Source: Candidatus Latescibacterota bacterium
GTDB lineage: Bacteria > Latescibacterota > UBA2968 > GCA-2709665
Assembly (NCBI GenBank): GCA_965205485.1
Contig: OZ242180.1
Coordinates: 3,808,001-3,872,000 of the forward strand
Direction: 5' to 3'
DNA: 64,000 bases
Shown here: positions 18,441-19,802 of the stretch, piece after piece
How the letters are laid out: each line of letters opens with the position of its first letter
Numbering within the stretch: position 1 is the stretch's first letter
Made by a program: the position numbers and the translations under genes
The notes under the pieces: generated by a model
Databases searched by the model: none
What the model was told of the DNA's origin: nothing
The model's input: the letters and a program-made list of their open reading frames with translations, nothing else

Positions 18441-19802
18441 ATGGATGAAGATCGAGACCTTGTAAGGTTTGCGTTAGCCGGCGACACGCAGGCGTTCGGC
18501 CGCCTGGTGGAGCGCTACGCCGAACGGGTTCTCGCGAGGGTCCGACGTGTGGTCAGCCGGCCGGACGATGCCGAAGACCTGGCCCAGGAGGTGTTCCTGC
18601 TGGCGTTTCGTCGCCTGGATCAGCTCCAGGATGCCAACCGTTTTTCCCCTTGGCTTTCGAGGATCGCTGAGAACATGGCCCGAGAGTGGCACCGGCGGCG
18701 GATCGTGCAGATCCGATTCGAGGAGTTGTTGTCGAAGGAGTGGTCCCGGCCCCACGCGGACGAATCGGAGGCGGAGCGGGAGGCCCGCATGATGGTCAGG
18801 GAGGCGATTCGCCGGCTTTCGGGTGCGCATCGGGAGGTGATCGAACTTCATTATTTCAAGGGTCGCTCGTACGGAGAAACCGCGCATCAGTTGGGACTGG
18901 AAGTCAACACCGTTCGCAGCCGCCTGCAGAAGGCGAGGCGGCGGATCAGAAAGGAGATGAGCGAGATGACAACCGCAGGAAACACATACGATCTTACGGC
19001 GCAGGACCTTCGGGCTCTCCATTGGGCAACCCGGTTTGTAAGCACGGACGAATCGCGACCTATACTCCAGGGTGTGTGCCTGGACACCGGCGGTCGGGTT
19101 CTTGGATGCGACGGAGCGCGGTTGCTGCTTCGCACGCTCGAGGGCACGGAGGATCTCGAGAAGCAGGTAATCCTGGGGCCAGGTTTCGATTTGCCGGCGC
19201 CGCATCCCGAGCGGGCTACGCTGTCGATCCGGGAAAACCGGGCTTTTCTGAAGGCCGTTGGAGAAGACGAACTCGTAATACCGATTCTCGACGAACCCTA
19301 TGTAAACTATGTGGCAGTGATACCGGAAAAGGGCGGCAGTTTCGTTCGGATATCCGCGGGTGAACTGCTGCAGGCAGCAAGCCTTATCACGGAGCATCTT
19401 GAGCCCAGGCATCCGGTTGCAGGGGTCTGGACGTATTCGCCACAAGTGGAGGTTCAGATTTCCAGCGAGCATCAGACGCTCTCGCTGGTCACGTCAAGGG
19501 ACCTGGGCTATCGTGCCGCCAAAGAGAATGCCGGTAAACCTGTATCGAATGACGATGCCCCGTGGGCCGGCGTTCCGTACTGGCGGTTCACGACCTCAAT
19601 AAATGGCAAGGTCAACCTGGAAGACAGTCCTGAACCGTTCAGATCCAGTGTAAATCACGCTTACCTGAGCGACGCTGTCTCCGGAATTGAAAGTGGGGGT
19701 ATGCTGGATATTCACTTTACGGATCCCATGAAGGGTTTACTTTTCACTTCATGCGACTATCCTGACCGGAAAGCGCTTGTGATGCCGATGAGAATCGAGT
19801 GA
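18441..19802 (+). CDS. ECF sigma-70 factor fused to a DNA polymerase III beta-clamp-like (domains II-III) C-terminal region
   Basis: Region 2 (GDTQAFGRLVERY, DAEDLAQEVF, FSPWLSRIAEN) and region 4 (LSGAHREVIEL..SYGETA..LGLEVNTVRSRL); then DESRPILQGV, CDGARL, YVNYVAVIP, VNHAYLSDAV, LVMPMR. Confidence 0.85.
   Translation: MDEDRDLVRFALAGDTQAFGRLVERYAERVLARVRRVVSRPDDAEDLAQEVFLLAFRRLDQLQDANRFSPWLSRIAENMAREWHRRRIVQIRFEELLSKEWSRPHADESEAEREARMMVREAIRRLSGAHREVIELHYFKGRSYGETAHQLGLEVNTVRSRLQKARRRIRKEMSEMTTAGNTYDLTAQDLRALHWATRFVSTDESRPILQGVCLDTGGRVLGCDGARLLLRTLEGTEDLEKQVILGPGFDLPAPHPERATLSIRENRAFLKAVGEDELVIPILDEPYVNYVAVIPEKGGSFVRISAGELLQAASLITEHLEPRHPVAGVWTYSPQVEVQISSEHQTLSLVTSRDLGYRAAKENAGKPVSNDDAPWAGVPYWRFTTSINGKVNLEDSPEPFRSSVNHAYLSDAVSGIESGGMLDIHFTDPMKGLLFTSCDYPDRKALVMPMRIE

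Follow-up and report, generated by a model that had tools for sequence, protein, structure and literature searches.

An open reading frame in the window (the whole stretch of 64,000 nucleotides that was analysed) encodes a predicted ECF sigma factor fused to a diverged copy of domains II and III of the beta sliding clamp DnaN. The residue of this clamp-like module that is equivalent to E. coli His175 agrees with the residue of the canonical clamp of the same genome in most of the genomes that carry both proteins, and this agreement is a new observation. We give a probability of about 0.5 to the reading of the module as a clamp-pocket mimic, predicted to control the sigma factor through ligands with clamp-binding motifs. 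The fusion and the co-variation suggest that gene control and the replication machinery are linked in a way not described so far.

The gene lies at 18441..19802 on the + strand, stop codon included, and its single uninterrupted frame of 453 amino acid residues was confirmed as an earlier sequence-only reading had described it. The fusion protein had 45 homologous clusters at E <= 1e-3. When it was scanned with Pfam, sigma region 2 was matched at residues 22-87 (18504..18701, +) by PF04542 (Sigma70_r2) with 50.5 bits against a cut-off of 24, and sigma region 4 at residues 117-171 (18789..18953, +) by PF08281 (Sigma70_r4_2; residues 117-169, 50.3 bits, cut-off 25.7) and PF04545 (38.4 bits, cut-off 24.1). 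The NCBIfam model TIGR02937 (sigma70-ECF) covered residues 18-173 with 95.8 bits, and among the best 25 of the 107 matched NCBIfam models it alone reached its own cut-off (42.9). None of the eight Pfam families listed at E <= 1 was a sigma region 3 or region 1 family. In the full-length structure model region 2 was helical, with a block-mean pLDDT of about 89-95 over residues 21-80. Judged by its sequence, the segment 1-175 is a complete ECF sigma factor of regions 2 and 4, in line with the earlier assignment of residues about 1-172. The extension beyond this core has 278 residues; the threshold for the C-terminal extension type of ECF sigma factors is more than 50.

The linker between sigma2 and sigma4 carries the family-specific motif RRRxVQ(I/L/V)R(F/L/W)ExLL at residues about 85-97 (18694..18731, +). 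Its Q90 was nearly invariant (56 of the 57 family rows), and the motif was missing from all four neighbouring ECF sigma factors that have no clamp module. Compared with the clamp-binding consensus Q-phi-x-L/M-x-F/L it fitted at the first four positions only, and the region was helical in the full-length model. The motif is loosely similar to a clamp-binding motif and might dock in the pocket of the module.

Residues about 176 to 453 are a diverged copy of the beta-clamp domains II and III, by sequence and by fold. Domain II (residues about 180-298; 18978..19334, +) was delimited by alignments, the full-length model and a joint alignment. It holds DESRPILQGV, CDGARL (equivalent to T172-L177 of E. 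coli) and YVNYVAVIP (equivalent to P242-V247). Domain III (residues about 299-453; 19335..19799, +), delimited by alignments and the structural match described below, holds VNHAYL with the equivalents of N320 and Y323 and the terminal LVMPMR, equivalent to V360-R365. All five motifs that had been named before were present in the correct order when aligned to solved clamps and to the cell's own DnaN. The module was collinear with residues 149-398 of the DnaN of the same genome (BLASTP E 7e-08, 22% identity), and the profile of the module family gave 59 matches to PDB sequences at E <= 0.01, 55 of which were beta clamps, with a best E of 5e-18.

The fold check that had been suggested for the C-terminal region returned a beta clamp. 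With Foldseek, E was <= 0.001 for 479 of the 500 counted matches (5.4e-11 for the top match), and every row among the matches listed was a beta-clamp entry. VIA-align placed bacterial beta clamps at ranks 1-16 with Z 13.2-16.8. The matches spanned chain residues about 120-410 as numbered in the entries, which are domains II-III, and the best was to residues 131-377 of 7evp_B, with Z 16.8 and an rmsd of 4.6 over 226 residues. The module thus shares the fold and the motifs of domains II and III with DnaN (PDB 1mmi, 3pwe, 7evp). The suggested HMM search gave a divided result. The two sigma models were above their cut-offs, whereas DNA_pol3_beta_3 was found with 18.5 bits, below its cut-off of 27, and DNA_pol3_beta_2 was not matched in the fusion protein, so that the clamp half would escape Pfam alone. 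PF00712, the clamp domain I, had no Pfam match in the fusion frame, and the sigma domains occupy its place. The earlier claim that the clamp half is without domain I and retains the pocket region is supported. The structure model of the module alone had a pLDDT of 68.6. The full-length model had a pLDDT of 85.2 and a pTM of 0.59 with low-confidence linkers, and therefore leaves the spatial arrangement of the parts unfixed. When the sigma half (1-175) and the module (176-453) were submitted to complex prediction, the median score was 0.31 against a mark of 0.32, and the controls scored 0.00-0.01, a result that weighs neither way on their binding. The tail may act in cis as an anti-sigma domain, as the sequence-only reading had suggested.

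The pocket was defined as the 18 module positions that are equivalent to the residues of subsites I and II of the clamp (PMC11139829, in part). The weighted top-residue frequency was 0.70 at these positions versus 0.48 in the rest of the module (Mann-Whitney p 1.2e-4), and 11 of the 18 reached about 0.75 or more. The equivalents of R152, L155, G174, R176, L177, V247, N320, M362, P363 and R365 were kept as in DnaN, and the frequencies were 0.90 for R206, 0.84 for L209, 0.97 for G225, 0.77 for both R227 and L228, 0.84 for V293, 0.97 for N405, 0.87 for M448, 0.97 for P449 and 0.76 for R451. The eleventh position is the T172 equivalent, where most of the family has T (0.73) and the module of the window has C. 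By these alignments the pocket for clamp-binding motifs, with subsites I and II, appears to be kept in the module. Its conservation could be structural in part. Some positions that are fixed in DnaN drift in the module, namely R176 to I in g11 and V247 to A and Y323 to F in f4, so that the match between the two pockets is incomplete. Domain III also has two family-specific insertions with the near-invariant residues H324-P325, Y332, P334, G356-Y357 and W381. Since they lie in these insertions outside the canonical pocket, H324, P325, Y332, G356, Y357 and W381 may mark a different functional site.

A separate canonical dnaN, for which a check had been suggested, was found in the same genome at G000:C1:1665025, where PF00712 matched with 77.2 bits. 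In E. coli, His175 bridges the two subsites of the clamp pocket (PMC11139829, in part). From the residue list in that source and the alignment, its equivalent in the fusion protein is Ala226 (module residue 52; codon 19116..19118, +). The canonical DnaN of the window's genome reads ATDGARL and has the same Ala. The sequence-only reading had taken the change from His to Ala as a sign of altered specificity; this does not hold, because the host clamp shares the Ala and the module tracks the host residue across genomes, which points to the same specificity as that of the host clamp.

Among the 25 genomes carrying both proteins, a pairing that left out the lineages with Arg at this position (weighted share 0.29), the residue was identical in module and DnaN in 18. 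The matching states were A/A in 4, H/H in 6, S/S in 7 and K/K in 1, the last being G168, the sole genome outside the phylum. The seven disagreeing pairs were G101 (S/T), G104 (A/S), G106 (M/S) and four g31 genomes (A/S). Counted by lineage, 6 of 10 matched, with a permutation p of 0.0066 in which kinship is ignored. The His175 column had the largest same-genome match excess among the 112 columns variable in both paralogues: 8 of 12 representatives matched versus 2.92 expected, and the excess over all columns had a mean of 0.01 and a standard deviation of 0.94. At the Pro242 equivalent, all 23 paired genomes of the phylum had V in DnaN and either V or L in the module, whereas G168 had P in both proteins.

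The 25 modules and the 25 DnaNs were split by a branch with 100/100 support and a length of about 2 substitutions per site. Around the motif the nucleotide identity between module and DnaN was 0.54, the third-position identity at identical residues was 0.36 over 148 codons, and in G105 Ser was encoded by TCA in one paralogue and AGC in the other. The deep branch, the low nucleotide identity and the differing Ser codons show that recent duplication or gene conversion does not explain the co-variation. It rests on one strongly coupled column, in which about three transitions are shared (to A, to S and to K). A drift in base composition could contribute to parallel changes such as the K/K of G168, whose module is unusual in amino-acid composition; a parallel drift of module and DnaN was not seen in the other 111 columns.

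A near-full-length match to the module (E <= 1.7e-56) was found in 65 of the 168 genomes of the window's phylum, one in each. All 65 copies were in open frames of 370-510 amino acid residues, and none was in a frame of about 280. The architecture search that had been suggested therefore showed the ECF-module fusion to recur. Outside the phylum the module was rare: one of the 301 sampled genomes of the phylum of G168 had it, and this was G168 itself. An exhaustive homologue search gave 123 matches, and sigma domains adjoined the module in 35 of the 60 that were scanned with Pfam. Ten proteins of 267-348 residues were without sigma domains. Nine of these came from contigs about 1-3.3 kb long, and longer members of 433-466 residues were present in four of their 90% clusters, so that the short proteins seem to be pieces of fused genes. 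P0065, a sigma-less module protein of 284 residues, is on a contig of 46.5 kb and is an exception to the short-contig pattern. Matches in the protein atlas were all below 0.9 and are leads only.

These data bear on whether the fusion could be an artefact, either a chimera of the assembly or a non-functional pseudogene in decay. Contigs of three runs bridged the junction with 0 differences (at most three samples of one study, one of them perhaps the source sample). The fusion was intact in the 65 genomes and conserved along its entire length, with a mean column identity of 53% over 57 sequences, and the topology of the module tree tracked that of the DnaN tree, a sign of vertical inheritance. 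The bridging contigs and the 65 genomes rule out the assembly chimera that the sequence-only reading had allowed for, and for an artefact of either kind the probability is negligible.

The module is an old, diverged paralogue of the beta-clamp domains II-III that has lost the features for encircling DNA and retained the hydrophobic pocket for clamp-binding motifs, matched to the cell's own clamp. In the mechanism that we propose, this clamp-pocket mimic would serve as the built-in input domain of the sigma factor, and the occupancy of its pocket would decide, by activation or by inhibition, whether the sigma factor works with RNA polymerase. Candidate ligands in trans are peptide motifs of the host-clamp type, carried by replication and repair proteins or by a dedicated regulator. 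An alternative candidate lies in the protein itself, namely the family-specific motif with Gln in the sigma2-sigma4 linker, which might compete in cis. The output of the sigma factor would then track the availability of clamp-binding partners, and hence the replication and repair status of the cell. That the module is linked to clamp-binding ligands had been proposed before, and the co-variation with the host clamp backs this. As a tentative extension, the module may be a target-decoy sensor in which the pocket mimic detects competitors for the docking site of the clamp and passes this on to transcription, with a pocket that co-evolves and so stays faithful. Such competitors could be polymerases and repair proteins present in excess, clamp binders of phages or peptide antibiotics that target the clamp.

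If the tail reads the docking motifs of the real clamp, it would be a direct protein-level link from replication and repair status to transcription initiation. We know of no such link in bacteria outside phage T4, whose clamp gp45 switches on late transcription by way of gp55 and gp33. As in the gp45-gp55-gp33 system, a sigma-family protein is here functionally tied to a sliding-clamp fold; the T4 clamp, however, is loaded onto DNA as a ring of its own and binds a motif of the sigma protein, whereas here the clamp-like part is fused, has two domains and probably forms no ring. Also, among ECF sigma factors that have no anti-sigma factor, the mode of switching is known for few tail types only. 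The co-variation makes the link testable with a few peptides and one purified domain. As a natural two-domain and probably monomeric scaffold of the clamp pocket, the module could help in the ring-free study of clamp-binding motifs and of clamp-directed antibiotics.

The mimic has to be weighed against a generic regulatory tail that packs on sigma2, sigma4 or RNA polymerase, in the manner of the SnoaL-like tail of ECF41-type sigma factors, and binds no clamp-type peptide, the pocket conservation being a residual structural constraint. A fused C-terminal extension without an anti-sigma factor marks the second commonest regulatory type of ECF sigma factors, with 19 groups, and ECF sigma factors that have no anti-sigma factor are typically regulated by such an extension (PMC7826278, in part). 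The fusion protein resembles them in its core of regions 2 and 4, in a tail of more than 50 residues that is conserved with the core, in a family-specific motif in the core linker and in having no anti-sigma gene nearby. Relatives have neighbouring ECF sigma factors with TPR or pentapeptide tails, the strongest family-specific invariants are in the domain III insertions, and several pocket positions drift, all of which suits a generic tail. It leaves unexplained, however, that the central residue tracks the host clamp through four states, beyond 111 other columns, and that the pocket-equivalent positions are more conserved, and we regard it as rather doubtful. The tail also differs from other ECF tails in that its pocket co-varies with a second cellular protein, the canonical clamp; to our knowledge this has not been reported for any of them. 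The extensions named in the part of PMC7826278 used here are SnoaL-like (ECF41, ECF56, ECF294 and ECF295), TPR (ECF42), Cys-rich (ECF238) and DUF1835 (ECF264), whereas this tail comes from a replication protein. No description of an ECF-clamp fusion was found in the literature searched, which included part of PMC7826278, whose other supplements might list rare architectures; nor did an already described ECF group with a clamp tail, which had been considered earlier, come to light there.

The module could also act as a mimic of a target, binding molecules aimed at the clamp and switching on a protective regulon. These molecules might be peptides similar to griselimycin or mycoplanecin, phage proteins or toxins that carry clamp-binding motifs, or products of competing bacteria. 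Co-variation with the host pocket is what faithful reporting on the target requires, and natural products and a phage protein sit on the clamp in solved structures (6ptr, 8ciz, 7evp); runs labelled sponge metagenome share few sampled words with the stretch, a habitat lead only. The neighbourhood, however, has no resistance gene, no clamp paralogue and no conserved neighbour at all, and genome scans with the upstream block yielded no regulon, which makes a protective decoy unlikely. Less probable again is a DNA-tethering ring, in which the module, like PCNA or gp45, would trimerise or join the host clamp and carry the sigma factor along DNA. The model did match the two-domain clamps PCNA, 9-1-1 subunits and gp45 in VIA-align with Z 9.8-13.2. 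Unlike DnaN, however, the module has lost the second inner-ring helix of domain II, by the joint alignment and by the full-length model, which has one long helix at residues 187-198, and its inner helices are acidic. Summed over the four inner-ring helix regions the net charge was -4.1 in the family versus -0.6 in 32 canonical clamps (p 1.1e-6), with K+R counts below those of canonical clamps in all four. The head-to-tail dimer interface of DnaN includes I272/L273 on domain III (PMC11139829, in part). Their equivalents are E144/H145 when the alignment is extended along the helix or P151/V152 by BLASTP, neither pair being conserved aliphatics; the alignment is uncertain here because the family's own insertion (PRHP) follows. 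A DNA ring is very unlikely, since the module is short of domain I and of one inner helix and has acidic helices.

The fusion gene is flanked by two hairpins, as had been claimed. The upstream one (18287..18309, +) is terminator-like, with a 10-bp stem of 8 G-C pairs followed by a T-run, and is kept in the aligned upstream regions of orthologues. It closes the upstream gene and sets the sigma gene apart. The downstream one is a perfect 11-bp inverted repeat, AAACCGGGCGC / GCGCCCGGTTT with an 11-nt loop, read directly at 19851..19883 between the convergent genes. A hairpin scan placed a terminator-like site on the minus strand at 19867-19847 within it, and since the tail is T-richer on that strand the main role of this hairpin may be to terminate the convergent gene. 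Alignment of the upstream regions of orthologues showed a conserved block, CAGGATACTTTCCG-N10-GCGCATCTTTATTCATGT, at 18360..18398 (+). The block is a candidate promoter, with a GGAAC-like -35 element, or operator of the fusion gene. GGATACTTT was present in 14 of the 15 aligned upstream regions, those of the window and of 13 of the 14 orthologue loci, and was absent at L010. The 39-nt profile of the block was unique in the genome (65.2 at its own site, 13.3 at the next best), and looser two-box patterns across the genome gave no convincing second site of a regulon. As the profile is overfitted to close relatives, the single match does not prove a regulon of one member.

No anti-sigma gene adjoins the fusion gene, as stated before; its neighbours are a 691-residue protein with a sub-threshold Pfam match to a transglutaminase core upstream and a convergent UMPH-1-type nucleotidase (Pfam) downstream. 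Synteny was limited to the close relatives L002-L015. At 13 distant loci no neighbour cluster was common to more than three, and none of the 12 neighbour proteins scanned there belonged to an anti-sigma family. In relatives, other ECF sigma factors with TPR or pentapeptide tails adjoin the fusion gene. The sequencing runs listed for the sampled words of the stretch included no RNA runs, and small shares of these words were in runs labelled sponge metagenome, which gives a lead to the habitat only.

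The fusion gene was found as one ORF of 453 aa at window 18441-19802 (+), with a terminator-like hairpin and T-run upstream (18287-18309) and a perfect 11-bp inverted repeat downstream (19851-19883), in the gap ahead of the convergent gene. This confirms the single frame between two hairpins described in the sequence-only reading, and the ECF regions 2 and 4 named there were also recovered. Pfam matched Sigma70_r2 to residues 22-87 at 50.5 bits and Sigma70_r4_2 to residues 117-169 at 50.3 bits, both above cut-off, and the general ECF model TIGR02937 scored 95.8 bits (cut-off 42.9). 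As all testable defining features are present, the protein qualifies as an ECF sigma factor and belongs to a known kind, the ECF sigma factors with a fused C-terminal regulatory extension. The upstream neighbour encodes a protein of 691 aa whose transglutaminase-core match is sub-threshold, and the other flanking gene encodes a UMPH-1-type 5'-nucleotidase; a Pfam scan of both neighbours showed no anti-sigma factor, as had been noted. A 39-nt upstream block (18360-18398; GGATACTTTCCG ... ATCTGTATTCATGT) is strongly conserved among orthologues, being present in 14 of 15 aligned upstream regions, and occurs only once in the 5.1-Mb genome. It is a candidate promoter or operator.

For the C-terminal half, Pfam by itself was not convincing. 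DNA_pol3_beta_3 stayed below its cut-off (18.5 of the required 27 bits) and DNA_pol3_beta_2 did not match the fusion protein, so the expected domain matches were obtained for the sigma half only. The module is collinear with domains II-III of its own genome's canonical DnaN (BLASTP E 7e-08, 22% identity, query residues 16-278 to subject residues 149-398). A profile built from 17 module sequences matched 59 PDB sequences at E <= 0.01, 55 of them beta clamps (best 5e-18) and 4 PCNAs. When the predicted module model was searched with Foldseek, beta clamps were returned throughout, with 479 of the 500 counted matches at E <= 0.001 (top E 5.4e-11). An independent structure search of 48,161 chains placed bacterial beta clamps at ranks 1-16 (Z 13.2-16.8), matched over domains II-III in every case, and the two-domain clamps PCNA, 9-1-1 and gp45 next (Z 9.8-13.2). 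Because these four lines of evidence agree, the identity of the C-terminal half as a fragment of a beta clamp is settled, and the clamp fold first read from its motifs has stood. The full-length model, based on an alignment of 57 sequences, had a mean pLDDT of 85.2 with both halves confident. It does not define how the parts are arranged, since pTM was 0.59 and the linkers at residues 94-105 and 177-179 were of low confidence. The nearest feature look-alikes in a protein atlas, scoring 0.86-0.87 and thus under the 0.9 lead threshold, were clusters of ~245-aa proteins auto-named 'putative DNA polymerase III subunit beta', with Fusobacteriota as the commonest phylum; these may be other two-domain clamp derivatives.

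The sigma-module junction (~18963) is crossed with zero differences by contigs of three sequencing runs, which represent at most three samples of one study, one of them possibly the source sample. Among 168 genomes of the phylum, 65 have a near-full-length module (E <= 1.7e-56), always as a single copy and in an open frame 370-510 aa long; one copy is present in the window's genome. These observations exclude an assembly chimera, and the probability of an artefact is negligible. A word-indexed search gave 45 clusters, nearly all of 442-480 aa with both halves, and an exhaustive search gave 123 proteins at E <= 1e-3. The Pfam scan covered 60 of the 123 and showed 35 with sigma domains ahead of the module, 15 without sigma domains, 7 ordinary three-domain DnaNs and 3 unrelated repeat proteins. 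Ten sigma-less proteins were examined. Apart from P0065, all come from contigs of 1-3.3 kb and are most plausibly pieces of longer genes, because the contigs are short and four of the clusters of these nine also hold members of 433-466 aa. By title, 21 of 30 named loci belong to Candidatus Latescibacterota and 6 to Gemmatimonadota or one of its lower taxa, with one each for uncultured bacterium, Lentisphaerae and Bifidobacteriaceae, the last matching in the sigma part only. Two further genomes hold short remnants, the first 60-80 module residues in open frames of 268 and 278 aa (G107:C1:5377355-5377597, covered by loci L029 and L092, and G130:C1:2563687-2563875), which may be decayed or truncated copies. 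Two related proteins, P0085 (348 aa) and P0070 (324 aa), carry further short elements beside the module, namely a SEC-C motif at the C terminus (PF02810, 38.1 bits) and, at the N terminus, a weakly matched zinc-ribbon-like segment with four Cys; each is encoded on a contig of ~2 kb, which leaves its completeness uncertain.

The pocket residues of subsites I and II were taken from the consulted part of the review PMC11139829 and mapped by profile alignment to the E. coli-numbered chain 3pwe_A, giving 18 equivalent positions. Conservation is stronger there than in the remainder of the module. Among 57 family members (~31 effective sequences), the weighted top-residue frequency was 0.70 at these positions and 0.48 at the 256 other module positions (p 1.2e-4), and the entropy was 1.27 versus 2.19 bits (p 2.4e-5). 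The module keeps equivalents of R152, L155, G174, R176, L177, V247, N320, M362, P363 and R365. The claim that it lost domain I yet kept the pocket region is borne out.

The separate canonical dnaN that had been anticipated was found in the genome (L001:1498-2697, corresponding to G000:C1 ~1665022-1666221). It encodes ATDGARL, with Ala at the His175 position as in the CDGARL of the module, and both proteins have Val at the Pro242 position. The His-to-Ala change had been taken to suggest altered specificity; this does not hold, as the host's own clamp has the same Ala. Module and DnaN were paired for 25 genomes: four families of the phylum supplied 24 (one reached via a named locus), and the Lentisphaerae-titled G168 lies outside it. 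The His175-equivalent was the same in 18: Ala/Ala in four genomes of family f1, His/His in five of f2 and one of f3, Ser/Ser in seven of f4 and Lys/Lys in G168. The mismatches (module/DnaN) were A/S in G104 and in four genomes that share a genus, S/T in G101 and M/S in G106. Counted by 10 lineages, 6 match, with p 0.0066 in a permutation test that ignores phylogeny. Among 112 aligned columns variable in both paralogues, this column showed the largest same-genome identity excess (8 of 12 lineage representatives identical versus 2.92 expected; mean excess across all columns 0.01, sd 0.94), and the second-largest belonged to the position that follows the R365 equivalent, on the pocket edge. General parallel drift, for example of base composition, would not pick out the His175-equivalent in this way.

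In a maximum-likelihood tree of 50 sequences, a branch of 100/100 support and ~2 substitutions per site split modules from DnaNs, and the clades of one subtree recur in the other. This makes the module an old, vertically inherited paralogue, not repeatedly re-derived from dnaN. Gene conversion is unlikely judging from the nucleotide sequences, because module gene and dnaN had a mean identity of 0.54 near the motif and a third-position identity of 0.36 at identical residues (148 codons), and the G105 serines come from different codon families (TCA and AGC). At the Pro242-equivalent, judged by motif context, the DnaNs of all 23 paired phylum genomes have Val and their modules Val or Leu; G168 has Pro in both proteins. 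The tracking of the host clamp by the His175-equivalent, resting on about three shared transitions, is suggestive, not conclusive. The co-variation of the pocket with the host clamp is a new result. The canonical DnaN of the phylum (relatives at loci L065-L086) is itself unusual at the Pro242 and His175 equivalents, both counted among the conserved pocket residues in the part of PMC11139829 consulted; the former is Val in all 24 canonical DnaNs examined from the phylum, and the latter is Ala, His, Ser or Thr by clade.

Our main reading, with a probability of about 0.5, is that the module is a clamp-pocket mimic acting as the input domain of the sigma factor. As both paralogues are in one cell, they share the set of proteins docking into the clamp pocket, and parallel change at the subsite-bridging residue has its simplest explanation in a common set of ligands for the two pockets. 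The module pocket would then control the sigma factor. According to the sections of PMC7826278 consulted, fused tails replace anti-sigma factors in ECF groups and the tail-core interaction is specific for each tail type. Consistent with this, the fusion family has its own sigma2-sigma4 linker motif, RRRxVQ(I/L/V)R(F/L/W)ExLL, with Q90 in 56 of 57 members; none of four module-less ECF sigmas encoded nearby has this motif. Its start resembles the clamp-binding motif (Gln, aliphatic, any, hydrophobic), the consensus being left incomplete. An attractive possibility is that the linker motif would dock in cis and ligands compete in trans.

A decoy sensor for clamp-targeting molecules would be a special case of the clamp-pocket mimic, and the co-variation serves it as well as the main reading; we regard it as improbable. 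Compared with a beta clamp, the module lacks domain I, the segment of domain II for the second inner-ring helix is shortened, the model showing one long helix in this domain, and domain III has two insertions, one after the first helix (EHLEPRHP...W.Y.P) and one of ~26 residues ahead of the fifth strand. The most conserved residues of the family lie in these insertions: H324 (0.97), P325 (0.93), Y332 (0.97), P334 (0.98), G356 (1.00), Y357 (0.93) and W381 (1.00). Family-specific invariants outside the pocket agree with a generic packing tail without a peptide ligand, which does not fit the co-variation with the host clamp and seems rather unlikely. The mean net charge of the four inner-helix regions is -4.1 in the module family; 32 canonical clamps average -0.6 (p 1.1e-6). 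Lys and Arg are scarcer in the family in each of the four regions. No conserved aliphatic pair aligns to the dimer-interface I272/L273, in a stretch where the family's insertion makes the alignment uncertain. Taken together, the loss of domain I, the shortened helix, the acidic inner helices and the apparent lack of the pair argue against a DNA-encircling ring, as far as sequence and model indicate. A PCNA-like ring tethering the sigma factor to DNA is disfavoured by the loss of that helix and by the acidity of the inner helices, and is very improbable. Since several defining clamp features were tested and found lacking, the fusion protein is not a sliding clamp functionally.

A clamp-type tail was not found described in the main text and one supplementary file of the ECF classification paper PMC7826278 or among the records listed by full-text literature searches. 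Because the terms were absent from these, we regard the clamp-derived tail as an ECF extension type for which we did not find a description. In distant relatives, ECF sigma genes with other tails, TPR or pentapeptide repeats, adjoin the fusion gene (L021:4114-5814 (-), L021:7746-9647 (+), L018:4814-5566 (-) and L017:4258-5073 (+)), which suggests that the lineage relies heavily on tail-regulated ECF sigmas. A predicted ankyrin-repeat protein, its repeats judged from the translation, is encoded ~2.3 kb downstream in the window (22145-22855 (+)). The Lentisphaerae-titled relative has a 676-aa ankyrin-repeat protein (Pfam) after its fusion gene (L027:7749-9776 (+)), and the two align at 26% identity (BLASTP).
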